DNA from: a virus
Taxonomy: Duplodnaviria > Caudoviricetes
Length of the DNA: 64,000 bases
IMG/VR virus record: IMGVR_UViG_3300017912_001273
Location: 1-64,000 of that record
Reading direction: 5' to 3' (one strand)
Shown here: piece by piece, positions 3,901 to 57,205 of the stretch
Position numbering within the stretch: the stretch's first letter is position 1
Layout: every line of letters starts with the position of its first letter
The notes under the pieces: model-generated
What the model saw: the letters and a program-made list of their open reading frames with translations, nothing else
Told to the model about the DNA's origin: nothing
Databases searched by the model: none
Position numbers and translations under genes: made by a program

Positions 3901-4641
3901 GTCTGCATTAGCTCCAACTGCTTTTATAACTAAATCTCTATATGTGCCTTGAGTAGTAATTTCATTATCATCAAACTTAACCGGTATAGTATGTGGAAGA
4001 GTAATTCCAGTACCAGTAGATGACATAGTACCACCACTAAGCTGTAGATATCTTCCATCTAAATCAACAGTAAGAGAACTTAAACCTTGTCTGCCTAATG
4101 TTAAAATACCATTACCTGTGTTGAATGAAACACTACTTACATAATTATTGGTATTAATCATATTTCCAAGTGCTTCTAATTCTAACTGTTGATTAATATT
4201 ATTTACATCATCATTATTATGAATGATCATACTAATAGAAGCAGTATCTGCACCAGATGCAGTACCAGTATAATTAGGTAAACTTTCTGGATCTAATCCT
4301 AAAGTAGCTGTACCACCTGAATATCCAAGACGTAAACCATCATAGGCTCCTCCTCCATTAATATTAACATTACCAGCACCTATTGCAGATGCAGTTGCAG
4401 TAGTAATACTTATTGTACCAGATCCTGTGATTGTTCCACCTTGTATTGGAGAAGTTGTTGCAATAGAAGTTACACTACCTGAACCAGCTCCTATATCTGA
4501 CTTAACTTGTGCTTTTGTCCTATATTTGAGAGCTGAACCATCCCATACAACAATACCGGTATATGTAGCATCATCATTAGATATAGAAGATACTGAGAGT
4601 GTACCTGTAACTTCAGAATTATTTAAGAATTTTATTGCCAT
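916..4641 (-). CDS. Long tail fibre protein with internal repeats (1241 aa)
   Basis: G/S/T-rich; repeats DTGxPAILSxGxxPSLNxGITAAEVRxLIGAG x3 and RTxAQVxSDIGAGxGS x3; LSVANGGTGA fibre motif. Confidence 0.85.
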   Translation of the reverse strand: MAIKFLNNSEVTGTLSVSSISNDDATYTGIVVWDGSALKYRTKAQVKSDIGAGSGSVTSIATTSPIQGGTITGSGTISITTATASAIGAGNVNINGGGAYDGLRLGYSGGTATLGLDPESLPNYTGTASGADTASISMIIHNNDDVNNINQQLELEALGNMINTNNYVSSVSFNTGNGILTLGRQGLSSLTVDLDGRYLQLSGGTMSSTGTGITLPHTIPVKFDDNEITTQGTYRDLVIKAVGANADILFQADIDEGDNTSSTYFLLDSSMAQTGNPDVYTRFPDYSRLVFGNSTNANSLDLEIYHEPDVSYIKGYYPIYIDSDSNIDINGDTGVNLKHNNSKKFETTSSGVSVTGSTTISSIANASSDTDKFLVSDSGVVKYRTGAQVRSDIGAGTGSMSSFSVSDGSSTGSITNGGTLTLNASTGISVGLTGSGGNGIFTITNSAPDTGTPAILSDGSTPSLNSGITAAEVRSLIGAGSGNGTITGSGTSGRSVKFNGSTSITNGRFFESATGTFLQDTASYPFKIQNDGGVTIFEFEGSGTSNSSNLQITPGTVSKPGINFGQRSGTGAGDTNTGIYSSAADNLEISTGGTKRIGFNSSGTTLNTLNAKSTAATVFLTSDSGIIKTRTAAQVLSDIGAGTGSGSVTSVGGTGNVNGITLTGTVTSAGDLTLGGTLAISNDDWSGTDLSVANGGTGASNAADARSNLGVINDTGTPAILSDGASPSLNTGITAAEVRSLIGAGTGSGSMSSWTIKEGNGTESTSVTNGETVTIAQGTGIQSEMTSTSSGGTITITNTGVTSLAASTGISLTSSTGAVTITNSSPDTGVPAILSNGSTPSLNTGITAAEVRNLIGAGTGNGSITGSGSANRVAYWNGGSSITSSSEFTWNGNTLTLGGSSDSEYNIEVGAGRSGNGYAYIDFVGDTTYTDYGLRIIRGNTGANTSSNITHRGTGTFSINTQDNASLLTKTNDTLRTQITGAGIMTFGADPANPTWYLDLVNKKTGFRTTTPGSAFDVNGTFRARNELNVGNTTEQNFFVEGGSGPRYVKMGAYTPTNKDTWLSGSANTGLVRATAGFGTGGKVVMATYRYTTKIEQGGWPTASGSSNGVNITPSPGSTKVLIVKDIFVHKAGSTKGSGWSSNTYAVEFVQQTANGSYSILGGVPRTTIINGDGVWYYNAYQNLYAFNNPQNEQRGTTNSPVKLMLPSAIYAFNQPTWYITVEYTVINLDIWRTNPDQTLT
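2062..3298 (-). repeat. Three ~34-aa coding repeats in the fibre (approx. 2062-2164, 2400-2503, 3196-3298)
   Basis: DTGVPAILSNGSTPSLNTGITAAEVRNLIGAGTG / DTGTPAILSDGASPSLNTGITAAEVRSLIGAGTG / DTGTPAILSDGSTPSLNSGITAAEVRSLIGAGSG. Confidence 0.9.
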
Positions 4642-31818: not shown

Positions 31819-32178
31819 ATGAAAAGAATATTCAGAGCAATAATTAAGATACTATTTGTGGTAGTTATACCAGTAATAGTATCTGCTCTGGTTATTAAGT
31901 TCTTTCTTAATTACCAGGGTGATAATTGGATAGGTGATCCTATAGTAGGATTAGCTGTCTTAGGAATAGTAGTAGTATGGGCTAACGCATTGTTTTACAC
32001 AGTGTTCTTAGCCAAGACAAAAGTATTACCAAAGATTACAGTAAGTACAGTACCAATGTTTGGATTTGCAATAGGTGCAGATCTATCACGTAGTCCTTGG
32101 TCATGGATAATTCTTATACCTTTTGTCTCAATAGAATTTAAAACACCGTATGAAAACAATGAATCAAATACTCTTTAG
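31819..32178 (+). CDS. Membrane protein
   Basis: At least two hydrophobic helices. Confidence 0.7.
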   Translation: MKRIFRAIIKILFVVVIPVIVSALVIKFFLNYQGDNWIGDPIVGLAVLGIVVVWANALFYTVFLAKTKVLPKITVSTVPMFGFAIGADLSRSPWSWIILIPFVSIEFKTPYENNESNTL

Positions 32179-32974
32179 ATTACTATTAGTCTCAATAGTA
32201 TTTGGGTCAGTGGTAACTTGCTGTTATGGGCAGCAAAGTAAAACCCATAATATAAGAACCTATTTTCCAGTACCAGAAAACTATGAAAGAATCTTCAAAG
32301 ATGCATATTCAGAGTGGTTGATTGAACATCCACTCAAGAATTTTAATCGTGTAAAGTACTTTGATGGTAGAGTCAAACATAATGATGGCATATATGCTGC
32401 TGTGTTTGACTATGATATTGGTAAAAGAGACTTACATCAGTGTGCTGATGCAGCTATATATCTTAGAGCATCATACAATTATGCAAGTAAGTTTCAAGAT
32501 AGGTTAGGATTTCACTTTACTAACGGAGATCAAGCGTGGTATTTAGATTATCTAAATGGTGCTACGTATATACCCGTTAATAATGGTGCTGACATAGAGA
32601 TAGTATGGAACAAACCACGTAAAGATAACTGCAATACGTTTAGAAAGTGGCTTGATGCCGTATGGACCTATGCTGGCACTTGGTCAGTAGAACAATATGA
32701 TACTGACCCAGTAAGTATTCTAGAAATACAACCTGGTGATGTCTTTATACAGGGAGGATTTCCTGGTCATGCAGTAACAGTAGTTGATGTAGCAGAAAAT
32801 GATAGAGGTCATAGGATCTTTATGCTTGCACAAAGCTATATGCCTGCACAGGAACAACATGTATTAATAAATCCGGCCATAGGTGATGTATGGTACTCAG
32901 CAGATAATATGTCATATATTTTCACACCTGAGTGGACCTTTGAGCCAACAGATTTACGTAGATTTAAAAAATAA
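32150..32974 (+). CDS. DUF4846-like secreted protein
   Basis: Signal peptide; DIGKRDLHQCADA, IQPGDVFIQGGFPGHAVTVVD, LAQSYMPAQ. Confidence 0.75.
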   Translation: MKTMNQILFRLLLVSIVFGSVVTCCYGQQSKTHNIRTYFPVPENYERIFKDAYSEWLIEHPLKNFNRVKYFDGRVKHNDGIYAAVFDYDIGKRDLHQCADAAIYLRASYNYASKFQDRLGFHFTNGDQAWYLDYLNGATYIPVNNGADIEIVWNKPRKDNCNTFRKWLDAVWTYAGTWSVEQYDTDPVSILEIQPGDVFIQGGFPGHAVTVVDVAENDRGHRIFMLAQSYMPAQEQHVLINPAIGDVWYSADNMSYIFTPEWTFEPTDLRRFKK

Positions 32975-35962: not shown

Positions 35963-36036
35963 GGTCCCATAGCTCAACTGGATAGAGCAACAGCCTTCTA
36001 AGCTGTAGGTTCTAGGTTCAAGTCCTAGTGGGATCA
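35963..36036 (+). tRNA. tRNA-Arg(TCT)
   Basis: Acceptor GGTCCCA/TGGGATC; anticodon arm ACAGC-CTTCTAA-GCTGT; T-loop TTCAAGT. Confidence 0.93.
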
Positions 36037-36041
36037 CATAT

Positions 36042-36126
36042 GGCCGGATGATGGAATTGGTAGACATGACAGACTTAAAATCTGTTGGGCTGTTAGCCCG
36101 TGTGGGTTCAAGTCCCACTCCGGCTA
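36042..36126 (+). tRNA. tRNA-Leu(TAA)
   Basis: Anticodon arm ACAGA-CTTAAAA-TCTGT, long variable arm GGGCT/AGCCC, T-arm GTGGG-TTCAAGT-CCCAC. Confidence 0.93.
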
Positions 36127-36129
36127 CTT

Positions 36130-36203
36130 GCACTCTTAGCTCAGTTGGTCAGAGCAACCGGCTCATAACCGGTAGGTCACAGGTTCAAGCCCTGTAGGGT
36201 GCA
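36130..36203 (+). tRNA. tRNA(CAT), Ile2 or elongator Met
   Basis: Acceptor GCACTCT/AGGGTGC; ACCGG-CTCATAA-CCGGT; lacks the initiator GGG/CCC anticodon stem. Confidence 0.88.
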
Positions 36204-36295
36204 CCTTGCAAAAGAAATAGTATGAAGAACAGAAATAAAATTATCATGATAAGGTTACTTGCCTGGTCATTAATAATAGGAATAACAATATTTAT

Positions 36296-39366: not shown

Positions 39367-40050
39367 ATGGAAAAAATTAGTGTTGACATAGTAAAATTAA
39401 GAGAAAATTTAAATGAAAAACTAGAATCATCAGGTTGGGACAGAATGTTATCACCTTATGTAAATGGTTTGAACTTTGACTATATAGTAAATGCTTTAGT
39501 AGATAATGTTAATGCAGGTAAAAGATTTACCCCAAAATTTAAAAACATATTTAATGCATTTAAAGAGTGTCCATATGATGATCTAAAGGTTGTCATAGTA
39601 GGACAAGACCCTTATCCTCAGCTTGGAGTGGCTGATGGTATAGCATTTAGTTGCTCCAACAAAGGAAAAGCAGAAAAATCCTTACAGTATATAAATAAAG
39701 CATTAGGTACTAATCACATAGATTTAAGATGTTGGTCTAACCAGGGTGTGCTGTTAATAAATACAGCACTAACCGTGGAAGTCAATAAGATTGGATCACA
39801 TTATCACTTATGGAAAAGTTTTGATGAATATTTATTTGAAGGATTAAATAGATGTTGTCCTGATACTATCTTTATCCTTATGGGTAAGAAAGCAGAGGAA
39901 TGGCAAACCTATTTAACAAATTGTAAAGTTCTAAAATGTGCTCACCCAGCATCAGCTGCATATAGAGGTGGAGAATGGGATTGTAATGATGTCTTTAATA
40001 AGACAAATGAAATCCTGAAAAAGCAAAATAGAACTTGTATAAATTGGTAA
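39367..40050 (+). CDS. ung: Uracil-DNA glycosylase, family 1
   Basis: VVIVGQDPYP, GIAFS, QGVLLINTALTV, HPAS. Confidence 0.93.
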   Translation: MEKISVDIVKLRENLNEKLESSGWDRMLSPYVNGLNFDYIVNALVDNVNAGKRFTPKFKNIFNAFKECPYDDLKVVIVGQDPYPQLGVADGIAFSCSNKGKAEKSLQYINKALGTNHIDLRCWSNQGVLLINTALTVEVNKIGSHYHLWKSFDEYLFEGLNRCCPDTIFILMGKKAEEWQTYLTNCKVLKCAHPASAAYRGGEWDCNDVFNKTNEILKKQNRTCINW

Positions 40051-45413: not shown

Positions 45414-45708
45414 AAGAAAAATAATTACAGCTGAAGAGTTTTTTAGACTCAAAGAAATGTTTATGGGTGCTGAAGAAGATCAGGCTATAGCAGTACAAGT
45501 ATATAAAAATAGTGGGTTTGCAGATAAAGAAATTGTAGATCTACTAATGGCTAAAGCACTAGTCTTTGAACCCAGAAGAAAATTTTGTGATGCAATAAAA
45601 TTCACATTTAATCTGCCCTCTAATAAAGAAATATATGCTTATATGGAGGAACATGAAGCAGAAGAAGTATACTATAAAATTTTAAGAGATATGGGATATG
45701 ATACATAA
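45397..45708 (+). CDS. Small helical protein of the MoxR/vWA locus
   Basis: ITAEEFFRLKEMFMGAEEDQAIAVQ motif shared with 48144 and 49169 ORFs. Confidence 0.7.
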   Translation: MTKNFKRKIITAEEFFRLKEMFMGAEEDQAIAVQVYKNSGFADKEIVDLLMAKALVFEPRRKFCDAIKFTFNLPSNKEIYAYMEEHEAEEVYYKILRDMGYDT

Positions 45709-46864
45709 TATTCAAGAGCTAGTTTCTAGAACTACTAAAACATTAATTTTTTCTGAGCCCTTCTACGGGCTCTTTTTAATTGGACTTAATAAAGAGTACA
45801 TTACTACTATACCTACTGCAGGTGTAAGTAAAAAAAATATAGGTGTCCAATTATCTATAAACCCTGAGTTCTTTACAGAGCTTAGTGAAGATCATAGATA
45901 TGGTCTTATAAAACATGAAATACTACATATTAGTTTTGGCCATATGGTTATGAGAGATTTATATAGTGATAAAAAGTTATTCAATATAGCTGCAGATCTA
46001 GAGATCAATCAATATATAGCAAGTCATCATTTACCTGAAGGCGGACTAATGCTTAGTAGTTTTCCTGAACTTAATCTTCCTGAGAGAGCTGGTACTAAAA
46101 CATATTATGATTTATTACAACAGGCTAGAGAAGATGGTACATGCCCAAGTTTAGATAACTTGATGAGTCAAATGGATGGTAATTCACAATATTGTCATGC
46201 AGGATGGGATGAGATAGAAGATTTATCAGAAGCAGATAAGAAACTATTACAAAAGCAGATAGAACATCAGATTAAAGAGAGTGCTGAACAGACACAGAAG
46301 AAACATGGTACAGTGCCTGGTGAGCTAGCAGAGCTTATTAATAGACTTTTAAATGTAGAACCACCCAAGTTTGATTGGAAAGGTTACCTAAGAAGATTTG
46401 TAGGAAATTCTAGTGTAGTATATACAAAAAAGCTGAGACGTAAGTATAATAAAAGATACTCAGCAAATCCAGGACTTAAGATTAAATTTAAGAATCACAT
46501 CCTTGTTGGTGTTGACACAAGTGGATCTGTAAATAGTGAAGAGCTAAAGGAATTCTTTAGTGAACTTACACACATGCATAAAACAGGACATAAGATTACA
46601 GTAGCACAGTGTGATACTGAATTGAAAAGTGTTAAAGAGTTTAATCCAAATAAAGATTGGGAAATACATGGTCGTGGTGGAACTAGTTTCCAACCAGTAA
46701 TTGATCACTATAATGAAAAGAAGGGGAGATATACTGCCCTTGTATACTTAACAGATGGTGAAGCTTATACACCAGAAGACTGCCCAAAAAATACCTTATG
46801 GGTACATAGCAGTGTTTCTAGTATAAATGATGAATTACCAGGATTAAAAATAAAATTAAATTAA
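45698..46864 (+). CDS. DUF2201-like metallopeptidase (HExxH) + vWA domain
   Basis: KHEILH, NIAADLEIN, MIDAS VDTSGS, GRGGT, YLTDG. Confidence 0.9.
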   Translation: MIHNIQELVSRTTKTLIFSEPFYGLFLIGLNKEYITTIPTAGVSKKNIGVQLSINPEFFTELSEDHRYGLIKHEILHISFGHMVMRDLYSDKKLFNIAADLEINQYIASHHLPEGGLMLSSFPELNLPERAGTKTYYDLLQQAREDGTCPSLDNLMSQMDGNSQYCHAGWDEIEDLSEADKKLLQKQIEHQIKESAEQTQKKHGTVPGELAELINRLLNVEPPKFDWKGYLRRFVGNSSVVYTKKLRRKYNKRYSANPGLKIKFKNHILVGVDTSGSVNSEELKEFFSELTHMHKTGHKITVAQCDTELKSVKEFNPNKDWEIHGRGGTSFQPVIDHYNEKKGRYTALVYLTDGEAYTPEDCPKNTLWVHSSVSSINDELPGLKIKLN

Positions 46865-46870
46865 ATAAAA

Positions 46871-48142
46871 ATGCAAGTAAATTTAAATGTAACAGAGCTA
46901 AAAGGTTTTATTAACCACATTATTGAGAATAATAGATTTTTACAAGAGCAAGGTAAAGGACCAGTATCAGTAGAAGTTGTAGGTGAATCAGGTATTGGTA
47001 AAACATCTACAATTGTTGAGCTAGCAAAGGATAATAATTTAAACTTTGTAAAGCTTAATCTTGCTCAGATTGAGGAGATAGGTGATCTTGTAGGTTTTCC
47101 TGTTCGTCAATTCCAAATGTATAAAGAAAAGCAGGTCACTGTAAAAAACACACCTGATAATTTAGCCATGGTAACAGCAACTCAAAGAGCAGCTGGTGCT
47201 AGTCTAGCTAATCTAAACACAACAGTAACCAAAAAGGTTGGTCAGTGGGTAGATGAACTTGCCGTACAAGAGTATCTAAAGAATGGATACAAAATGACAG
47301 GTAAGAACAGAATGTCTTATTGTGCACCAGAATGGATTGCTGATAAGAAAGAAGGAGGCATTCTATTACTAGATGATTGGAACCGTGCAGATACAAGATT
47401 TATCCAAGCAGTTATGGAATTGGTGGATAGACAGACTTATATTTCATGGACTCTTCCAAAAGATTGGCATATTATTCTTACAGCAAATCCAGATAATGGA
47501 GACTATATGGTAAATAGTGTTGACTCAGCACAGAAGACTAGATATATTACAGCAAATCTAAAGTTTGATGTAAATGTTTGGGCACAATGGGCAGAGGGAG
47601 CTAATATAGATACAAGATGTATTAACTTCTTGTTACTACACCCAGAGCTTGTAACACAAGAAACAAATGCAAGATCCATCACAACTTTCTTTAATGCTAT
47701 TTCTAGCTTTGAGAAGTTTGAAGACAGTCTCCCTATGATCCAAATGATTGGTGAAGGTAGTGTTGGTGATGCTTTTGCATCTATGTTTACTACCTTTATT
47801 AATAATAAGTTAGACAAGCTTGTAACACCTGTAGATTTATTGACTCATGATAATGAGCAATATATTCTTAATGAGTTAAGAAGTTGCATAGGTAAAGATG
47901 ATACTTACCGTGCAGATATTGCATCTACATTGGCTACAAGGCTTGGTAACTATGCTGTAGTATACTCTAAAGAGAATACAGTAACACAGAAGATCACTGA
48001 TAGATTGAAGACTTTATGTACTGCAGATTATTTTACTAATGATCTTAAGTACTTAATTGTCAGAACAATCTTTAACGGTAATAAAAAGAAGTTTAATAAA
48101 CTAATGATGATCCCTGAGATCATTCAAATGACAATGAAGTAA
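46871..48142 (+). CDS. MoxR-like AAA+ ATPase
   Basis: GESGIGKT, LLLDDWNRA, LPKDWHIILTANP, AQKTRY; next to vWA gene. Confidence 0.88.
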   Translation: MQVNLNVTELKGFINHIIENNRFLQEQGKGPVSVEVVGESGIGKTSTIVELAKDNNLNFVKLNLAQIEEIGDLVGFPVRQFQMYKEKQVTVKNTPDNLAMVTATQRAAGASLANLNTTVTKKVGQWVDELAVQEYLKNGYKMTGKNRMSYCAPEWIADKKEGGILLLDDWNRADTRFIQAVMELVDRQTYISWTLPKDWHIILTANPDNGDYMVNSVDSAQKTRYITANLKFDVNVWAQWAEGANIDTRCINFLLLHPELVTQETNARSITTFFNAISSFEKFEDSLPMIQMIGEGSVGDAFASMFTTFINNKLDKLVTPVDLLTHDNEQYILNELRSCIGKDDTYRADIASTLATRLGNYAVVYSKENTVTQKITDRLKTLCTADYFTNDLKYLIVRTIFNGNKKKFNKLMMIPEIIQMTMK

Positions 48143-48143
48143 T

Positions 48144-49172
48144 ATGGCAAGTAAATCAGTATTTCAGAAATATGATACTGATGCATTGGACTACTTTGAT
48201 TTGGCAAGTGACCCTATTTATGGGGTCATTGCCGGATCAAATATAGAAGATGTATTGGTTACACAAGATGAAACAACATATACTAATATCCGTGAGATAA
48301 TTGCAAAGCCAACTGAAACGGATCAGACTTTTATAAATAAGAAGAAAGCTTTTGTTCTTCCTAGTAGCCCGGTATCTAATGATAAGATAAAAGCAGCACT
48401 AAAAGAACATAAGATTACTGTAACTAATGATTATACACAGGCAGACTTAATTGTAACTCATGATGACTTTGATGACAATTTTGAGAGTAGTGAAACAATT
48501 AAGACAACTAAGATGATGTATAAACTTTGGAACTATGAAACTACTTCAGGTGATCCTAGTAGTAATTTAAGTCTCAATCAAATGATTAAGAATTGTGGGC
48601 GTCATGTGATTATAACTCCAAAGATCACAAATAACATACGTTATTATGCTTTAGATGTTGAGGATAGTCTCTATGATACTTGGGCTATTACAGGTCTTGC
48701 ACTTAATCTAGCATATGAAATATATGTTGGTAATAAAAGCACTGTATCAATTGAAACTGTACTACACACATCTGCAACAAAACAACCTCTGAATGAAGAT
48801 GTTGTTGACCAGGTTATTAGAATGTGGAAAGCAGGAGGAGATGATAGAGAAGTTGCTACACAGTTATTAACTACACTTGACTATACAACAAATCATCATT
48901 TGATGTGGAAGTTGACTCAAGAGTTGGGTAGTCTACATTATAATCACCATAATAAAGATCTCAACCACTGGATGACAGCCAGCAATTGGGAGTTTTATTA
49001 TAACCAGAATGCAGAATCTATGATACAATGGATGGAGGAGAATGGATATCTAAATAAGATAAGCTTTAAATATCTAGAACCTATAGTTCGTAAGGATATA
49101 ACCATTCATAATAGAGAACTATATGTATTCAAGGTATCAGTTAAGAAAGAATATCAAAAATATTTAGTATGA
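48144..49172 (+). CDS. Hypothetical protein with BRCT-like segment
   Basis: KKAFVLPSSPVSNDKIKAALKEHKITVTNDYTQADLIV. Confidence 0.65.
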   Translation: MASKSVFQKYDTDALDYFDLASDPIYGVIAGSNIEDVLVTQDETTYTNIREIIAKPTETDQTFINKKKAFVLPSSPVSNDKIKAALKEHKITVTNDYTQADLIVTHDDFDDNFESSETIKTTKMMYKLWNYETTSGDPSSNLSLNQMIKNCGRHVIITPKITNNIRYYALDVEDSLYDTWAITGLALNLAYEIYVGNKSTVSIETVLHTSATKQPLNEDVVDQVIRMWKAGGDDREVATQLLTTLDYTTNHHLMWKLTQELGSLHYNHHNKDLNHWMTASNWEFYYNQNAESMIQWMEENGYLNKISFKYLEPIVRKDITIHNRELYVFKVSVKKEYQKYLV

Positions 49173-50317
49173 AAAAGTATTATATAATTAAGATATCTCT
49201 TGAAGAAGATTCAATTGCTATGGATGCTAATGGCAACTATGTCATTAGCACCGGCATTGAATTAAAAGACGGAGGTATATTTATAACAAACACAAACAGT
49301 TGGAATATAACAGCTAAGGACTTAAAGTATTGTAATATAGTGGCAAGTAAAGATACTATTGATTTACAAGACAAGTCTATATATAGATTTCCAAAACTAA
49401 ATTTGCCTAGACAAAAAGTAGATTTACTTAAAGATAAGTTTAATTTAAAAGTAGTTAGAAATAAAGACAAAGCAGATTATCATGTTATATCACATAAATT
49501 TTTAGGAAGTTTATTTCAAACCAATTGGGATACTGCTATAACATTTAAAGATCTTTATAAAATATTTCAAACATGGAAAGAAGATGGCTTATTATCAGAA
49601 ACCGCTTTATTAAAATGTAGAGATATATTAGAGCTTGAAAAAGATGCAATGTTTTTAATTCATAGACCAGGTTACTATTATAGTAATAAAAGTGATGACT
49701 ATGATAAGTTTTGTAATAATGTATTAGCACCAATTTCAGATGCTAAAAAACCTTATGAAACTAATAGAATTTTCTCTGTAAATCCAACTGAAGTAAAATC
49801 ATTTCTAGATATGGTTGGCTCAAATAAATTAATAATGGATGGTCAACTACTTGATATTATTGATGAAGATCTGGCAGTAATAGATAACACTCAGTATGAT
49901 CAAATAGAGAATATGATTAAGAGTAGTGACAGAGATAACAGAAATATGGCGGTAGAAATGATTGCTAATTGTAATATTAACAAATCATTTGATGTTGTTT
50001 CTGGTATTTATTGGTGGCATTATGATTGGTTTAAAGATACTGATCACTGGAATAGTGTAAATGTTAAAGCCATGCGTCAGCAATTGAAAGATTATGAAGG
50101 TGGCCATAGTAATAGTGGCATTTATTCTTACAATGCATACATAGAAAAGCTTGCAAAAGACGGAAAATTAACTAAATTTGCAGTAGATAGGACAAGGGAA
50201 AAGCTTATGAAAGATTTCTTAAGCAATTATGTTGGAAAATCTGCTCAGGTCTTTGCAGTAGATTTGGATAATTTAAAACTAAATGAAAAATTTGAAAAGC
50301 AAGTTATAGATGAATAG
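49169..50317 (+). CDS. Hypothetical protein with BRCT-like segment, paralog of 48144-49172
   Basis: DKSIYRFPKLNLPRQKVDLLKDKFNLKVVRNKDKADYHVI. Confidence 0.65.
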   Translation: MKKYYIIKISLEEDSIAMDANGNYVISTGIELKDGGIFITNTNSWNITAKDLKYCNIVASKDTIDLQDKSIYRFPKLNLPRQKVDLLKDKFNLKVVRNKDKADYHVISHKFLGSLFQTNWDTAITFKDLYKIFQTWKEDGLLSETALLKCRDILELEKDAMFLIHRPGYYYSNKSDDYDKFCNNVLAPISDAKKPYETNRIFSVNPTEVKSFLDMVGSNKLIMDGQLLDIIDEDLAVIDNTQYDQIENMIKSSDRDNRNMAVEMIANCNINKSFDVVSGIYWWHYDWFKDTDHWNSVNVKAMRQQLKDYEGGHSNSGIYSYNAYIEKLAKDGKLTKFAVDRTREKLMKDFLSNYVGKSAQVFAVDLDNLKLNEKFEKQVIDE

Positions 50318-52398: not shown

Positions 52399-54390
52399 AT
52401 GAAACACTGGGTAATGGACTATGAAACACTATCCAATTGTTTTGTTGGCGTCTTTGTACACTATAAGACAAATGAGAAAAAAGTTTTTGTCGTACATGAG
52501 TTACAAAATGATTTTGATAGCTTCATAGAATTTCTTAGAGAGAATGTTAATGAAAGACAGTGGCATATCTCTTACAATGGATTGGCCTTTGATTCACAGG
52601 TCACTCAATATATTATAGAAAATCACTCTCAATGGGAGGATTACTCAGCTGATCAGATTGCTAGAACTATTTTTAAGTATGCACAGAGATGTATATATAA
52701 AGCAAACAATAAAGAATGGTCAGACTATCCGCTATGGAAACTCAGTATAGGACAGATTGATATATTCAAGATGCACCACTGGGATAATCCTGCTAAGCGT
52801 TCTAGTCTTAAGTGGATACAATACAGTATGGACTGGCAGAACATATTAGATATGCCTATCCATCATGATACAGAAATTAGTAAACAAGAAGAGTTAGATA
52901 CTATTATAGAGTATTGTGTTAATGACGTTGAGTCAACAAAAGAAATCTTTAATAGATCTAAATCACAGATACAATTAAGAAAAGAACTTACTAAAGCATA
53001 TGGCATTAATTTATTTAGTGCCTCAGAACCACGGATTAGTAAAGAACTATTTGGATATTATCTATCTAAAAAGCTTAACATTCATAAAAGTGAAATCAAA
53101 AAGATGAGAACTTTTAGGGATACTATAGTTATGAAGGATATTATCCTACCATATGTAAAATTTACTTCACCAGAATTCCAAACTCTACTAGATAGATTCA
53201 ACTCTCTTGAGATAGATCCTAGTAGACTCAAAGGTAGTTTCAGGTACAGTGTAACATATAAAGATGTTAAGACTGACTTTGGCCTTGGCGGTGTTCATGG
53301 TGCTAGAAACAAAGGGGTATATGAAAGTGATGATGATATGGTTATTATATCATCAGATGTTACTAGTTTCTATCCTAATCTAGCTATTAGAAATAAATTT
53401 TCTCCTGGTCACTTTCCTAAAGAAGAGTTTTGTGATCAGTATGAATGGTTCTTTAATGAAAGAAAGAAGATTCCTAAGAGCAATCCTATGAATTATGTAT
53501 ATAAGATTATACTGAATTCTACTTTTGGTCTTAGTAATGATGAGAATAGTTTCTTTTATGATCCAGAGTTATGTATGAAGATTACAGTAAATGGTCAACT
53601 TACTTTGATGATGCTCTATGAGCAAATCATGGAAAGGATCCCTGATGCTGTAGCTTTATTACATAATACAGATGGTATTGAGACAATGATACCACGTAAA
53701 TACTATGATGATTACATGGAAATATGCAAAGAGTGGGAAGATTTAACTAATCTTGAGCTTGAGCATGATGAATATCAAAAGCTGGTCCTTGGGGATGTCA
53801 ACAACTATATTGGTGTGAATAACTTCAAAGATGTTGATATTACCACATGGAGAGAATTAAAACAGTCACAACCACATTATGTATATAAAGTGGACAATGA
53901 TAAATTTTCATTTGCACCTGTGAAACTTAAGGGCCGTTTTGATTTTCATAATCTTCAATTACATAAAAACAAATCAAAGCTTGTTATCAAGAAAGCTATC
54001 TATCAGTATTTTGTAAATAATGTTTTGCCAGAAGACTATCTGGATCAAAACAAAAACATACTAGATTATTGTATAGGTGGCAAATCAAAGGGTGATTGGC
54101 AACAAGTAGCTAGATTTGTAGACACAGGTAATTATAAAGAAGAGTATCTTCAAAAGATAAATAGATACTATATATCTAATGGGGGTGTAAAAATTATCAA
54201 AGTAAACAAGAATGATGGGCGTGAGATACAGTTAGAATCAGGTAAATGGTTACAGACTGTATATAATAAAATGGATATAGCTCCTAAATGGGAGACATAT
54301 GATATTAATAAAGCCTATTATTTATCTGCTATAGAGAAGGAGATAAATGATATTCTTGCAGTTAGTAGTAATCAATTAAAATTATTTTAA
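52399..54390 (+). CDS. polB: Family B DNA polymerase with 3'-5' exonuclease
   Basis: MDYET, YNGLAFD, YCVND; SDVTSFYPN, KIILNSTFG, NTDGI. Confidence 0.93.
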   Translation: MKHWVMDYETLSNCFVGVFVHYKTNEKKVFVVHELQNDFDSFIEFLRENVNERQWHISYNGLAFDSQVTQYIIENHSQWEDYSADQIARTIFKYAQRCIYKANNKEWSDYPLWKLSIGQIDIFKMHHWDNPAKRSSLKWIQYSMDWQNILDMPIHHDTEISKQEELDTIIEYCVNDVESTKEIFNRSKSQIQLRKELTKAYGINLFSASEPRISKELFGYYLSKKLNIHKSEIKKMRTFRDTIVMKDIILPYVKFTSPEFQTLLDRFNSLEIDPSRLKGSFRYSVTYKDVKTDFGLGGVHGARNKGVYESDDDMVIISSDVTSFYPNLAIRNKFSPGHFPKEEFCDQYEWFFNERKKIPKSNPMNYVYKIILNSTFGLSNDENSFFYDPELCMKITVNGQLTLMMLYEQIMERIPDAVALLHNTDGIETMIPRKYYDDYMEICKEWEDLTNLELEHDEYQKLVLGDVNNYIGVNNFKDVDITTWRELKQSQPHYVYKVDNDKFSFAPVKLKGRFDFHNLQLHKNKSKLVIKKAIYQYFVNNVLPEDYLDQNKNILDYCIGGKSKGDWQQVARFVDTGNYKEEYLQKINRYYISNGGVKIIKVNKNDGREIQLESGKWLQTVYNKMDIAPKWETYDINKAYYLSAIEKEINDILAVSSNQLKLF

Positions 54391-54788
54391 TGTATAGACC
54401 GTTACCACCTTCAGTTACGGTTAGACAATCAGTTATAGATGGGTTAGGCTTGTTTGCAGCAGAAAATATTGCTTCTGGTACAGACTTAGGTATAACCCAT
54501 ATATATGACCAAAGATTTGAAAACCGTTATATTAGAACTCCATTGGGTGGTTTTATTAATCATAGTAAAGAGCCTAATGCAAAACTCATTGGTTGTAAAG
54601 AATCAAGAGATATAGATTGTGGAATTCTGCATCTTCAATTGATTAAAGATGTTAAGTCTGGAGATGAGATTACCACACAGTATTCTCTCTATGAAGTAGA
54701 TGTAAAAGATATTACAGTAAACGGAGTAGAGATAATAGCAGGCACTGAGGCTGCATATGTGATAGATAAACCTATAATAAATGATTAA
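54390..54788 (+). CDS. SET-domain protein (putative protein-lysine methyltransferase)
   Basis: DGLGLFA, FINHSKEPNA, GDEITTQY. Confidence 0.9.
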   Translation: MYRPLPPSVTVRQSVIDGLGLFAAENIASGTDLGITHIYDQRFENRYIRTPLGGFINHSKEPNAKLIGCKESRDIDCGILHLQLIKDVKSGDEITTQYSLYEVDVKDITVNGVEIIAGTEAAYVIDKPIIND

Positions 54789-55614
54789 GGTACAGAATAC
54801 TAAAACCTTAGTTACAAAACCCAATAACAATAGTGCAAACTGCATAGCTCCCAATGTAATCTATGGTTGCTTTGGTGGCTGTGTAGACACTTATTGTTAT
54901 ATGTCTCGTTATAATGGACGTAGAGTTTTTGTAAATAAGAATGTTGACCAGATTTTTCAGTCTGTAGTTGAATGGGAAAAAACTTTTTATAAAGAACCAG
55001 ATCAACAGGACCCTATATATACTATGGTAGATATTGCATGTAACTCAGATCTTGTTCTGATGCAGAAACATATGCCTGAACCATTAATTGATTATCTAAA
55101 AAGATATGATGATCATCCCCGTCTTAACAGTACTATGGCTACTAAGTATCCAGGATTACTAAAATTAGATGTAAATCATTTTAATAAACCACCAAGAGTA
55201 CGTGTAAGCCTTATGCCTCAAAAGTATTCAAATATACTTGAGCCTAAAATGCAAAATATATTGAGCCGTATTGAAGATGTAAACCGTCTAAAAGATTTAG
55301 GATGGCAAGTTCATATTAATTATAGTCCACTTGTATTTCATTTTTATTGGAAAGAGCTGTATTATGAACTGTTTAGTAAGGTAAAAGAAATAGCCGGGGT
55401 AAATAAATGTGAGGTGATAGCACTCACAAATCATAAACAACAGATGGCCAGAGCATCAGAACTTGCAAAAGAACTAATGAGAAGGTCTTCTGAGATAAAA
55501 AATGCATCAGGTGTTATGCGTTATCCTTTAGAGCATAAAACCAGACTCCTAAATGAATTCAAAGACATATACAAAGAATTTTTTCCATTAGATACTATTA
55601 GATATATATTTTAA
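54781..55614 (+). CDS. Spore photoproduct lyase-family radical SAM enzyme
   Basis: GCFGGCVDTYCY cluster motif, DIACNSD, ATKY, RVRVSLMP, HINYSPLV, MRY. Confidence 0.8.
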   Translation: MIKVQNTKTLVTKPNNNSANCIAPNVIYGCFGGCVDTYCYMSRYNGRRVFVNKNVDQIFQSVVEWEKTFYKEPDQQDPIYTMVDIACNSDLVLMQKHMPEPLIDYLKRYDDHPRLNSTMATKYPGLLKLDVNHFNKPPRVRVSLMPQKYSNILEPKMQNILSRIEDVNRLKDLGWQVHINYSPLVFHFYWKELYYELFSKVKEIAGVNKCEVIALTNHKQQMARASELAKELMRRSSEIKNASGVMRYPLEHKTRLLNEFKDIYKEFFPLDTIRYIF

Positions 55615-55646
55615 TTTGGGTGACTCAGTATTTTTTATTATATTTA
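55615..55646 (+). promoter_or_regulatory. Bacteroidota-type promoter TTTG-N20-TATATTTA
   Basis: Upstream of ORF 55666. Confidence 0.55.
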
Positions 55647-55665
55647 CACTTTAAAAGTTTAAGAT

Positions 55666-56583
55666 ATGGGATATAAAAAACCAACAAATACTACCAGAGC
55701 ATATCTGGAGAATGCACCCTTACCAAATCACGGTAAGAGTTATACAGTAATATCACATAAAACAGTGATAGACAATACGTTAGATCTATTAAAGAATAGT
55801 GGATTCAAAGTTCTAGAAGAAAAGTATAGAACTAATATGAATGCAAACGTTGCACAGGGAATATATTATATTCATCCTACCTCAACAGATCAACAGATTA
55901 ATGATGAGGAAGAGTTGGGTATGATGTTTACCTGGGTGAATTCATATGACAAGAGTAGAATGTTTAATTGTACAATTGGAGCATATGTTAAAGTATGTAG
56001 TAACGGTATGTGTGCAGGAGACATGTACCACTATAAAAGAAAACATACTGGAGCTGCAGATACTGATGTAAGAAATCATATATCTAGTCAGATCAAAAAT
56101 GCTGAAAAGTATTATAAAAGGTTAATTAGTGATAAAGAAACAATGAAGCAGATTGATTTATCTACTAAACAAATGTCTGAGTTGACAGGAAGATTGTTTA
56201 TAGATGAAGATATGATTGACTCACAACAAGTAACCTGCATCAAGAAAGAAATAGATACGCCTTCTTTTAAGTACAAAGGAGGGACAGGCACTGCTTGGGC
56301 TTACTATAATCATGTTACGCATGCATTAAAGAAAGCACACCCAAGAGATTGGATGAATGACCAGAGAGACTTTCATGATTTTATGACTGCAGAAATATTA
56401 AATCTTTCTACCATACAACCATATGAAGAATGGATTCTTAACTTTGATAATGATGAGTTAGGTATTACCAACGCTGATACAGAGCACGGTATTGATATTG
56501 AAGTAGAAACATTTGAACCAATTGAAGTTGATACTGAAATCAACTACAACAGACTATTACAGGACGTATATATGGGCAGATAG
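55666..56583 (+). CDS. DUF932-like protein
   Basis: YTVISH, NSYDKS, VCSNGM, RKHTG, TAWAYYNHVT. Confidence 0.75.
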   Translation: MGYKKPTNTTRAYLENAPLPNHGKSYTVISHKTVIDNTLDLLKNSGFKVLEEKYRTNMNANVAQGIYYIHPTSTDQQINDEEELGMMFTWVNSYDKSRMFNCTIGAYVKVCSNGMCAGDMYHYKRKHTGAADTDVRNHISSQIKNAEKYYKRLISDKETMKQIDLSTKQMSELTGRLFIDEDMIDSQQVTCIKKEIDTPSFKYKGGTGTAWAYYNHVTHALKKAHPRDWMNDQRDFHDFMTAEILNLSTIQPYEEWILNFDNDELGITNADTEHGIDIEVETFEPIEVDTEINYNRLLQDVYMGR

Positions 56584-56745: not shown

Positions 56746-56921
56746 TGAAACCAAAACAGAAGTATGATGCTAGTTATACCAGAAAGAAAAATAGAAAGAC
56801 TATTATCATTGATGGTAAAGAATATAAATATGATGATGCCTCTTCGTTTAAACAAACGTATCACTGGCAAAGATTTAATATGCAAACTACTGCTAAAAGA
56901 AAAAATAAAAACAAAAGCTAA
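56746..56921 (+). CDS. Basic micro-ORF (~58 aa), not in ORF track
   Basis: MKPKQKYDASYTRKKNRKTIIIDGKEYKY..., coupled to next gene; coordinates approximate. Confidence 0.5.
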
Positions 56922-57205
56922 TGAATGCTAAAGAAAGAAAAGAAAGACCTGTATTTACAGGAGTATTAAAATATTTCCCGGATGCTATCATGGAGATAGC
57001 TAGGGTATCATTGGCTGGTAATAAACAACACCACCCTGATAAGCCGTTACACTGGGATCGTAGTAAATCAACTGATGACTATGATGCTCTTGCTAGACAT
57101 CTTATTGATGCTGGCACTATAGATGATGACGGAATCCGTCATACTGCAAAAGTAGCATGGCGTGCATTAGCTTGCTTACAAAAAGAACTAGAAAATGAAA
57201 AGTAA
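56921..57205 (+). CDS. dATP/dGTP diphosphohydrolase-like domain (DUF5664-like)
   Basis: YFPDAIMEIARVSLAGNKQH...W...DALARH...HTAKVAWRALA. Confidence 0.75.
   Translation: MNAKERKERPVFTGVLKYFPDAIMEIARVSLAGNKQHHPDKPLHWDRSKSTDDYDALARHLIDAGTIDDDGIRHTAKVAWRALACLQKELENEK

Follow-up and report, generated by a model that had tools for sequence, protein, structure and literature searches.

What does a 277-aa open reading frame (ORF) on the plus strand of the replication module of a marine phage encode, and could its product undo, in phage DNA, a type of damage known until now from spores and dried DNA? An earlier note, made from the sequence alone, had read this ORF as a phage-encoded, N-terminally short relative of spore photoproduct lyase (SPL) with an atypical CX3CX4C cluster motif and a retained hydrogen-donor cysteine, and had proposed that the phage treats its virion like a spore. 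The window analyzed here is a stretch of 64,000 nucleotides from virus record IMGVR_UViG_3300017912_001273, which is 96,101 bases long and has an estimated completeness of 84%. That the gene belongs to a phage is borne out by the portal, large terminase, major head protein, tail fiber, DnaB-type helicase, primase, and DNA polymerase genes found in the window. The ORF cannot be longer than given in Table 1, because the first start codon downstream of the preceding stop is its own start.

Table 1. Positions in the window of the SPL-like gene, its motifs, and the genes that flank its slot
Feature	Position	Strand	Basis
Phage DNA polymerase, upstream marker of variable slot	52399..54390	+	tblastn matches to phage DNA polymerases
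SPL-like radical SAM gene, 277 aa + stop	54781..55614	+	ORF, Pfam, TIGR03886, 4fhc, AF2 model
N15-N16-N17-S18, remnant of N-terminal domain loop (Ser76-Lys77-x-Ser79)	54823..54834	+	Profile alignment to 4fhc
Predicted [4Fe-4S] cluster motif C30-x3-C34-x4-C39, with Y38 and Y40 around third Cys	54868..54897	+	Sequence, alignments
D84-IAC87NS-D90, fourth Cys (H-atom donor position, Cys140/141) and conserved Asp	55030..55050	+	Aligned to AACTSD of 4fhc
A120-T-K122-Y, Lys174 (SAM-carboxylate ligand) equivalent	55138..55149	+	4fhc profile alignment
R139-V-R141-V-S143, equivalents of Arg191, Arg193 (lesion O4 contact), and Ser195 (SAM contact)	55195..55209	+	4fhc profile alignment
E211-VIAL-T216, Glu268 equivalent kept, Thr at Arg273 position	55411..55428	+	4fhc profile alignment
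Shortened beta-hairpin S236..P249, tip K240-N241 replacing Arg304-Tyr305, then invariant R247-Y248	55486..55527	+	Model strands, alignment
C-terminal R274-Y275-I-F277, Tyr equivalent to lesion contact Tyr339	55600..55611	+	4fhc alignment ends on Y275
DUF932 gene, downstream marker of slot	55666..56583	+	PF06067 at 9.6e-18

Profile searches place the ORF product among the SPLs. Its sole Pfam match is the SPL profile PF20903 (E = 1.5e-14; 54.1 bits against a cutoff of 27, and 52.4 bits in the genome scan; profile positions 65 to 258 of 338), which scored above its cutoff in 1 of 14 control genomes, that of B. subtilis. The best-scoring curated family is TIGR03886 (E = 6.4e-38; profile positions 62 to 346 of 346), with an alignment that reaches the C-terminal end and a score of 130.8 bits that lies below the equivalog cutoff of 437.55, compared with 566.6 and 465.2 bits for two true members of that family (P0195 and P0178). 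The SplB equivalog profile TIGR04070 also matched below its cutoff (E = 1.9e-12; 46.8 bits versus 400). All five PDB matches are SPL chains, and 4fhc was recovered with an E value of 1.8e-9 by the single sequence and 1.9e-34 by a family profile (residues 65 to 339). The AF2 model of the 277-aa protein (pLDDT, 95.9) displays the SPL-type partial TIM-barrel fold, and all of the top six PDB matches in Foldseek are SPLs (TMq, 0.75 to 0.79; E of about 1e-15), with 4fhc at an E value of 7.7e-16 and a TM score of 0.79 and the next radical SAM fold at 7.4e-5; the best structural match in BFVD is an unnamed protein (TMq, 0.65). Thus, the nearest families by Pfam, NCBIfam, PDB, and Foldseek are those of SPL and not of another radical SAM family, which agrees with the SPL-like assignment of the earlier note. 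Judged from these profiles and the predicted fold, the ORF product is a true SPL relative, trimmed down and with its iron-sulfur cysteines unusually spaced. PHROGs yielded no family for it, and tblastn searches of 50,697 deposited phage records, a set that may lack those close to the window's own genome, recovered no match at E ≤ 1e-5 and hence no relative from a cultured phage.

The similarity extends to individual residues. In SPL, Lys174 is the SAM-carboxylate ligand, Arg193 contacts O4 of the lesion, Ser195 contacts SAM, and the Ser76-Lys77-x-Ser79 loop of the N-terminal domain holds the 3' thymine (PMC3467042). Alignment to 4fhc indicates that the phage protein has kept Cys90/94/97, Tyr96, Tyr98, Cys140, Lys174, Arg193, Ser195, Glu268, Tyr339, and the Ser79 loop. 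We counted conservation in a 49-row alignment (A1), in which C30, C34, and C39 are invariant (49/49) and the predicted equivalents of the Tyr96/Tyr98 relay, Y38 and Y40, are present in 48 and 43 rows, respectively. The SAM contacts assigned by profile alignment, K122 (Lys in 47/49) and S143 (44/49), and the similarly assigned lesion contacts, R141 (48/49), E211 (Glu in 48/49), and Y275 (invariant, 49/49), are each conserved in at least 44 rows, and S18 is Ser in 47 of the 49. The retention of a hydrogen-donor cysteine likewise stands up: Cys87 of the DIACNSD motif (residues 84 to 90) aligns to Cys140 of the Geobacillus enzyme, the equivalent of Cys141 of B. subtilis (PMC3467042). The position is Cys in 36 of the 49 rows, the Asp of the motif is conserved in 48, and the D-IAC-NS-D pattern recurs in 79 of 82 viral loci.

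Other parts of the protein have been altered or lost. [quoted passage not shown] Thr occupies the Arg273 position in all 49 rows of A1. About six residues are absent ahead of the beta-hairpin in the clade of the query, and the hairpin strands of the model are confined to residues 238 to 239 and 245 to 247. Tyr305 of SPL is called highly conserved in PMC3467042; at the hairpin tip column of A1, 24 of the 49 rows have Tyr, Phe, or His and 9 have Asn. The G-x-[MLVI]-RYP pattern that follows is seen in 75 of 82 viral loci, and all listed variants of the eight residues preceding it have K-N at positions 5 and 6. Lys309 is without a clear equivalent and aligns to a nonbasic residue in a loop whose alignment is uncertain. 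The shorter hairpin and the Lys-Asn tip in place of Arg-Tyr imply that DNA is handled differently than in SPL. Together with the Arg273-to-Thr change and the scores far under the equivalog cutoffs, the shortened, nonaromatic hairpin suggests that the substrate of the phage enzyme may be SP-like rather than identical to the spore photoproduct (SP).

Several known systems bear comparison with the phage protein. SplB of Bacillus and Geobacillus (4fhc, TIGR04070, PF20903) shares with the phage protein the fold, the three cluster cysteines with a Tyr on either side of the third, the fourth Cys, and the substrate- and SAM-contacting residues listed above; nevertheless, the two are only about 20% identical, differ at the Arg273 position and in the hairpin as well as in cluster spacing (CX3CX2C in SplB), and belong to a spore former and a phage of marine bacteria, respectively. 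The TIGR03886 "SPL family proteins" of non-spore-formers (e.g., Curtobacterium, Methylobacterium, and Spirosoma) share with the phage protein a Thr that is invariant at the Arg273 position, as well as the C-terminal R-Y...K and RY-x-F motifs. However, true members are 343 to 380 aa long, possess the N-terminal domain, and have CX3CX2C, and some members, such as P0195, lack the Cys at the Cys140 position that the phage protein retains. Long-form relatives were found in Spirosoma, Pontibacter, Adhaeribacter, Curtobacterium, and Methylobacterium. A third group is a clade of short SPL-like proteins (about 280 to 300 aa) from metagenomes and from Lewinella, Cesiribacter, Odyssella, Legionella sp., and Neisseria-MAG genomes, which unite with the phage proteins in one clade (support, 98). 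The bacterial copies, which are chromosomal and uncharacterized, share the length, the truncated N terminus, and the C-x-G-G-C-x-x-[ST]-Y-C motif (34 to 36% identity) and differ in having a longer hairpin with an aromatic tip (e.g., P0129, identical to the Lewinella copy L085). Their surroundings are non-phage, and in the Legionella sp. and Lewinella sp. loci the short CX3CX4C forms stand alone among unrelated neighbors, which fits an enzyme of direct reversal.

Evaluation of gene contexts across phages revealed that the SPL-like gene occupies a variable slot. Among 80 loci with a polymerase 73 to 96% identical to that of the window, 38 carry it near the polymerase, and in many of those without it the DUF932 gene directly follows the polymerase; it is thus an accessory gene, present in about half of the close relatives. 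It lies on the same strand among helicase, primase, nuclease, and polymerase genes and moves alone between positions and genomes. The gene is widespread: scanning viral contigs of IMG/VR with a profile built from 12 sequences recovered it in at least 558 stretches, and at least 1,110 protein clusters were counted separately. A representative search unrestricted by length returned mostly proteins of 270 to 300 aa, the exceptions being a 451-aa protein with an N-terminal extension (P0158) and a 1,504-aa protein with a partial match (P0205). Photolyase is absent from the 96-kb record.

With moderate confidence, we interpret the ORF product as a working SPL-family radical SAM enzyme that reverses SP-type dimers without light and is deployed by marine phages as an accessory gene. 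Such an enzyme would consist of the catalytic barrel and the lesion-binding loop and be otherwise cut down. C30, C34, and C39 would coordinate a [4Fe-4S] cluster in spite of the two-residue insertion. Once reduced, the cluster would cleave SAM, which K122, S143, and the backbone around Y38/Y40 would keep in place. R141, E211, Y275, and the N15-S18 loop would bind a flipped-out dimer of the 5-thyminyl-5,6-dihydrothymine type, from whose C6 the resulting 5'-deoxyadenosyl radical would take a hydrogen; the methylene bridge would then break, Cys87 would give back a hydrogen atom, and Tyr40/Tyr38 would serve as the relay back to SAM. Two thymines would thereby be restored in the phage DNA with neither light nor excision, probably early in infection, alongside the action of the replication genes. 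The missed equivalog cutoffs, the noncanonical spacing between the second and third cysteines, the Thr at the Arg273 position, the lack of a clear Lys309 equivalent, and the remodeled hairpin speak against this interpretation, as does the fact that SP is known from dry DNA rather than from hydrated virions.

A possible, though rather unlikely, alternative is that the protein is an active SPL-fold radical SAM enzyme directed at another thymine-derived structure in DNA, such as a different UV or radical lesion or a base modification intermediate. A precedent is gp53 of Pseudomonas phage M6, a radical SAM N-alpha-glycinylthymidine isomerase that fold recognition likens to SPL and whose substrate is a modified thymine in DNA (PMC8989533). 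The departures from true SPLs in the hairpin tip, Arg273, N-terminal domain, and equivalog scores are compatible with such a role, many phage ORFs have no family assignment, and partner genes could be missing from a record that is 84% complete. However, gp53 is a 480-aa protein with CX3CX2C that resembles the family over the core only: phmmer and tblastn found no match between it and the SPL-like protein, and hhalign aligned it to the family with a probability of 90% and 16% identity over the radical SAM core, without an equivalent of the Cys87 region, whereas the SPL profile match spans residues 65 to 339. It also acts within a kinase/transferase/PLP gene cluster that was not found in this record. 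When we compared ORFs chosen by position around gp53 in the unannotated M6 record, including the presumed gp51 (transferase), gp52 (PLP enzyme), and gp54 (kinase), a ribonucleotide reductase was the sole match in the 96-kb record (phmmer and tblastn, E ≤ 0.1). As far as the 84%-complete record extends, none of the thymidine hypermodification partners (5-hmdU DNA kinase, aGPT-Pplase transferase, PLP decarboxylase, and dUMP hydroxymethylase) was detected, nor was the thymidylate synthase/dUMP hydroxymethylase fold (PF00303) or ThyX (PF02511). The invariance or near invariance of the thymine contacts Arg193, Glu268, and Tyr339 likewise counts against this alternative, as does the tendency of the gene to move alone and, in bacteria, to stand alone, which is unlike a pathway gene.

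We consider it improbable that the SPL resemblance reflects ancestry only and that the enzyme either has a substrate other than DNA (RNA, protein, or a small molecule) or serves chiefly to consume SAM. We know of no member of TIGR03886 or of the short clade with a demonstrated substrate, and it is the DNA-flipping hairpin that has been remodeled, both of which leave room for such a function. Nevertheless, the contacts to the lesion bases have been kept beyond those to SAM and the cluster, the gene lies within a DNA replication and repair module, and PADLOC found no defense system match for it or for three of its neighbors. Furthermore, in the closest cellular relatives' family, the "SPL family protein" of Curtobacterium is reported as UV-C induced (PMC12029717), which fits a role in DNA damage.

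The canonical radical SAM motif is CX3CX2C, and a literature search found no radical SAM enzyme with CX3CX4C in print. Read directly, residues 30 to 39 are CFGGCVDTYC, and HMMER aligns them to the cluster motif of Geobacillus SPL (from residue 90), with a two-residue gap in SPL between the second Cys and the Tyr-Cys pair; CX3CX4C is thus a radical SAM cluster motif with an insertion and not a chance pattern of cysteines. It recurs in 120 of 120 near relatives, in the form C-x-G-G-C-x-x-[ST]-Y-C also seen in the chromosomal bacterial copies, and in 77 of the 78 viral loci readable over this part. The gene is under purifying selection, with a median dN/dS of 0.093 (38 of 44 pairs with defined dS) and 0.094 in the one unsaturated pair (L075; dS, 0.16). 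Given this near universality and the low dN/dS, the insertion is, on the alignments, no error. The earlier note was right about the motif and its position, but the motif is less exceptional than it had seemed: across the tree, the spacing switches back and forth between CX3CX2C, CX3CX3C, and CX3CX4C, even among close orthologs. That the spacing disables cluster or SAM binding, leaving a decaying or noncatalytic remnant, is very improbable despite the departure from the canonical motif, in view of this constraint, the invariant cysteines, the confidence of the AF2 model through the loop (block means of 91 and 88), and the noncanonical spacings that function in ThiC, HmdB, and some QueE enzymes.

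Sunlight ranks among the main reasons why viruses decay in surface water, and the known phage answers to UV are host photoreactivation, excision enzymes, and recombination. The SPL-like enzyme of marine phages suggests a possible viral means of undoing sunlight damage; radical SAM direct reversal would then add a light-independent route to phage UV repair. Where the lesion would arise is a separate matter. SP is described from dry, A-form, SASP-bound DNA (PMC12029717), and our literature search turned up no work on SP in virions or on an SPL from a phage. It is a speculative and, in our judgment, unlikely proposal that packed, partly dehydrated virion DNA (in the capsid, sea spray, or ice) undergoes spore-type photochemistry and that the minimal SPL of marine phages reverses the lesion on entry. 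As part of this reading, the family would also demonstrate that a radical SAM cluster loop can accommodate two, three, or four residues between the second and third cysteines, along with longer first spacers, within one orthologous group. As a whole, the earlier interpretation is partly supported. If it is correct, virion DNA would suffer a kind of damage known until now from spores and dried DNA, and spore DNA repair would have a viral counterpart, encoded by an accessory gene that some members of a large group of marine phages carry and others lack. As the gene is found in about half of the close relatives, its presence can be tested against ecological variables such as depth, season, and aerosol exposure. 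Natural orthologs with the three spacings (CX3CX2C in P0122, CX3CX3C in the gene of L063, and CX3CX4C in the present gene and the Lewinella-type P0129), together with a 277-residue minimal SPL, offer a means of probing the roles of the N-terminal domain, the hairpin tip, and the loop spacing, and the phage enzyme, if it acts as we propose, would provide a first functional handle on the uncharacterized SPL-like proteins of non-spore-forming bacteria.

Some minor observations concern the host and the neighborhood. A contig of a Flavobacteriales MAG (L083) hints weakly at the host of this lineage. One metatranscriptome run (X20) examined over positions 52399 to 56583 yielded contigs on the polymerase and DUF932 genes and none over 54781 to 55614. 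A gene with a PF18909 domain nearby brought a Z-genome to mind, but a PurZ-like adenylosuccinate synthetase was not in the record, and this explanation was set aside. Linkage to a SET-domain gene was also rejected: the SET-domain gene overlaps the start of the SPL-like gene by 8 nt but occurs in only 5 of the 80 viral loci selected for the SPL-like gene (L009, L011, L075, L078, and L079).

Profile searches of Pfam and NCBIfam, together with sequence and structure matches in the PDB, place the phage protein nearest to spore photoproduct lyase (SPL), as the earlier note had proposed, and give no closer homologs in another radical SAM family. Its sole Pfam match is the SPL model (PF20903; 54.1 bits versus a cut-off of 27; model positions 65 to 258 of 338), a model that exceeded its cut-off in 1 of 14 control genomes, that of B. 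subtilis. The NCBIfam matches are TIGR03886 ("SPL family protein"; 6.4e-38) and TIGR04070 (SPL proper; 1.9e-12); the protein scores far under the equivalog cut-offs of both and belongs to neither. PDB sequence searches recovered Geobacillus SPL chains exclusively, at 1.8e-9 with the single sequence and at 1.9e-34 with a 49-sequence profile, which aligned SPL residues 65 to 339. An AlphaFold2 model built from the 49-sequence alignment (mean pLDDT, 95.9) had SPL as all six of its top PDB structure matches (E ~1e-15; TM, 0.75 to 0.79), the next radical SAM fold being NifB (7.4e-5). The short N terminus noted earlier is no calling artifact, since the ORF opens at the first start codon that follows an in-frame stop. 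The feature is real and well conserved and represents a new phage-borne variant of the SPL family, minimal and with a cluster loop that varies.

Features of the phage genome (positions in the window; the last two rows lie past it, in the 96-kb virus record)
Feature	Position	Strand	Remarks
DUF4846 protein	32150-32974	+	PF16138, 6.6e-71
tRNA-His (ARAGORN)	32195-32285		91 nt, anticodon ATG, within the DUF4846 ORF; probably a false call
tRNA cluster	35963-36205		Compact; Arg-TCT, Leu-TAA, Met-CAT
UDG-superfamily protein	39367-40050	+	PF03167, 4.8e-14; replication module; 33-48% conserved in distant phages with the SPL-like gene
DUF2201 putative metallopeptidase and VWA-like domain protein	45698-46864	+	
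Three ORFs	46871-50317		342-423 aa, no Pfam match; directly after the DUF2201/VWA-like gene
SET-domain protein	54390-54788	+	132 aa; PF00856, 6.5e-7; phrog_28741, 1.8e-21; 8-nt overlap between its stop and the start of the SPL-like gene
SPL-like gene	54781-55614	+	277 residues; start is the first start codon past an in-frame stop
Cluster motif CFGGCVDTYC	54868-54897	+	Residues 30-39
DIACNSD	55030-55050	+	Residues 84-90
PF18909 protein	56921-57205	+	94 aa; dATP/dGTP diphosphohydrolase N-terminal domain, 6.6e-11
Class I ribonucleotide reductase	64980-67597	+	Small and large subunits
Two giant ORFs	70982-90148	-	1,894 and 4,491 aa

Functional residues of Geobacillus SPL named in excerpts of PMC3467042 were mapped onto the phage protein through the 49-sequence profile alignment, and their conservation was counted in the 49-row protein alignment of the query family. 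The Cys recognized earlier at the H-donor position is C87 of DIACNSD, which aligns with Cys140. Ser79 is described in the same excerpts as part of a loop holding the 3' thymine.

Counterparts of SPL functional residues and their conservation
SPL residue	Phage residue	Alignment rows
Cys90 / Cys94 / Cys97	C30 / C34 / C39	Each 49/49
Tyr96	Y38	48/49
Tyr98	Y40	43/49
Cys140	C87	36/49
Lys174	K122	47/49
Arg193	R141	48/49
Ser195	S143	44/49
Glu268	E211	48/49
Tyr339	Y275	49/49
Ser79	S18	47/49

In contrast to Geobacillus SPL, the family has Thr at the Arg273 position in all 49 rows, and the phage protein lacks most of the N-terminal domain, has no clear counterpart of Lys309, and carries K240-N241 in place of the hairpin tip Arg304-Tyr305. 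The marine phage clade has a shorter segment ahead of the hairpin, by about 6 residues; Lys-Asn occupies the tip positions in all listed variants of this stretch (pattern detected in 75 of 82 viral loci), and Tyr, Phe, or His is found at the tip position in 24 of the 49 rows. The alignment thus indicates that the base and SAM pocket is conserved and that the parts thought to grip and flip DNA are remodelled.

The atypical CX3CX4C motif is read directly from the DNA: two extra residues follow the second Cys, ahead of the [ST]-Tyr-Cys. The form C-x-G-G-C-x-x-[ST]-Y-C occurs in all 120 near relatives listed (at least 79% identity), and among 82 loci (80 viral and two on viral-looking "genome" contigs), the spacing is CX3CX4C in 77 and CX3CX3C in one (L063, 70% identical), with four ending before the motif. 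The L063 gene (1820-2647) is an orthologue with CQGNCKSYC, nested among CX3CX4C proteins; the same motif is seen in the fragment P0138, and similar ones are seen in P0130 and P0264. Across 150 representatives at 50% identity, the second spacing is 2 in 63, 3 in 3, and 4 in 22, and the 62 without the motif are mostly fragments, 9 being at least 250 aa; the first spacer is lengthened in two of the 9 (P0143, CX4CX2C; P0157, CX12CX2C). In an 86-row maximum-likelihood tree (from a quick search, with SH-aLRT as the sole support measure and both insertion columns retained), the short forms constitute one clade (support, 98), within which a 32-row subclade (support, 95) mixes spacings 4 (23 rows), 2 (8 rows), and 3 (1 row); the starred branches alone force at least five changes of the spacing-4 state, and the sister of the query's clade is P0122 (49% identical, CX3CX2C). 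Since spacing drifts inside the SPL-like family, CX3CX4C is less singular than it appears; other noncanonical spacings operate in ThiC, HmdB, and some QueE enzymes. A literature text search for "radical SAM" together with CX3CX4C, in three spellings, found no paper. The median pairwise dN/dS against the window gene is 0.093 over 38 of 44 full-length pairs; the remaining 6 have no defined dS, and in most pairs dS is saturated. The pair with L075, where dS is unsaturated, gives 0.094. Motif conservation and low dN/dS show that purifying selection maintains the variant loop, which is therefore most likely functional.

The window belongs to a phage genome, as its minus strand encodes a portal, large terminase, major head protein, and tail fibre; plus-strand genes near the SPL-like ORF encode a DnaB-type helicase, AAA ATPase, primase, RusA, PD-(D/E)XK nuclease, UDG-superfamily protein, SNF2-type helicase, and DNA polymerase. 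The virus record (96,101 bases; 33% G+C; estimated 84% complete; related contigs of up to 113 to 125 kb) encodes no photolyase. Contigs from one metatranscriptome run matched the polymerase and DUF932 genes and did not cover the SPL-like gene, a result that speaks neither for nor against its expression. At least 558 IMG/VR stretches among the 598 matches listed encode a relative, and such proteins already bear the automatic label "spore photoproduct lyase" in several sources. In loci selected by SPL, the gene lies mostly near the polymerase, on either side, or next to the SNF2 helicase or primase. More distant phages have an SPL-like protein that is 70 to 79% identical, versus 25 to 60% for flanking replication proteins, an excess pointing to either transfer among phages or stronger constraint. 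Among 80 polymerase-selected loci (73 to 96% identical), the gene is found within 10 kb in 38 and absent from 19 that extend 8 kb or more to each side (where it may lie elsewhere in the genome), 23 being too short to score; many loci without it have DUF932 immediately after the polymerase. The gene is thus accessory and occupies a slot whose content varies. The SET-domain gene, found in only 5 of the 80 viral loci selected by SPL and in some that were selected by the polymerase and lack the SPL-like gene, is a separate variable occupant of the same slot. The most conserved neighbor is the PF18909 protein (64 to 99% identity across loci); a 2-aminoadenine genome is not indicated, the record having no PurZ-like adenylosuccinate synthetase.

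Among 600 matches listed in species-representative genomes, at least 586 stretches encode a relative, and 80 loci were kept, the cellular ones being the top of a similarity ranking rather than an unbiased census. Ten (L085 to L094) are short (291 to 293 aa), 34 to 36% identical, and CX3CX4C; they derive from Lewinella, Neolewinella, Cesiribacter, Paracaedibacteraceae, Odyssella, Legionella sp., and Neisseria, Burkholderiales, and Janthinobacterium MAGs. In both short-form loci analyzed, the neighbors are unrelated chromosomal genes: one has an ankyrin-repeat protein and a metallophosphoesterase, the other a glycerate kinase and an adenylate cyclase. In the Legionella locus (L092), the ORF upstream (3469-4623, +) has a weak TcdA/TcdB glycosyltransferase-domain match below the cut-off (E = 5.5e-4; 19.7 bits versus 23.6). 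The other 68 (L095 to L162) are CX3CX2C and mostly long (343 to 380 aa by crude ORF calls, with five outliers of 279 to 617 aa due to crude start choice), from Spirosoma, Fibrisoma, Larkinella, Pontibacter, Adhaeribacter, Mucilaginibacter, Curtobacterium, Methylobacterium, Sphingomonas, and others. According to excerpts of PMC12029717, an "SPL family protein" of Curtobacterium aetherium is UV-C induced, and spore photoproduct (SP) forms in dry DNA.

The gene might instead serve DNA hypermodification, as does gp53 of phage M6, an SPL-like radical SAM enzyme that, in excerpts of PMC8989533, isomerises glycinyl-thymidine in DNA, with a 5-hmdU kinase, an amino-acid:DNA transferase, and a PLP decarboxylase as partners. 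The published motif of gp53 served to find its gene in the M6 genome, and when the ORFs around it were compared with the 96-kb record, ribonucleotide reductase alone matched. The likeness of gp53 to the query family does not extend past the radical SAM core (90% probability and 16% identity in hhalign), and the record has no thymidylate-synthase-fold enzyme or ThyX. Given these results and the copies that stand alone in bacteria, a hypermodification role is unlikely, with the reservation that the record lacks 16% of the phage genome and that many of its ORFs have no assignment. The most probable reading is that the phage protein is a [4Fe-4S]- and SAM-binding enzyme that acts by the SPL mechanism to reverse a thymine dimer of the SP type, in which C87 would be the H donor and Tyr40/Tyr38 the relay; its production would accompany that of the replication proteins. 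The earlier note's idea that capsid DNA in sunlit water behaves like spore DNA is a conjecture that the results neither favor nor oppose, and aerosol drying or freezing could be alternative routes by which virion DNA reaches SP-forming conditions. Literature searches found no paper on SP in virions or SPL in phages.

Runs containing the window stretch, from 11 DNA studies, are seawater, sponge, marine, and viral metagenomes, plus one coded organism and one unlabelled. The class I ribonucleotide reductase, an oxygen-dependent type, implies an aerobic host. Of the two phage-like genome contigs, that binned in a "Clostridium sp." MAG (L084; gene 71% identical) is probably a binning error, and that in a Flavobacteriales MAG (L083; gene 80% identical, same polymerase-SPL-DUF932 order) offers a weak hint of the host.
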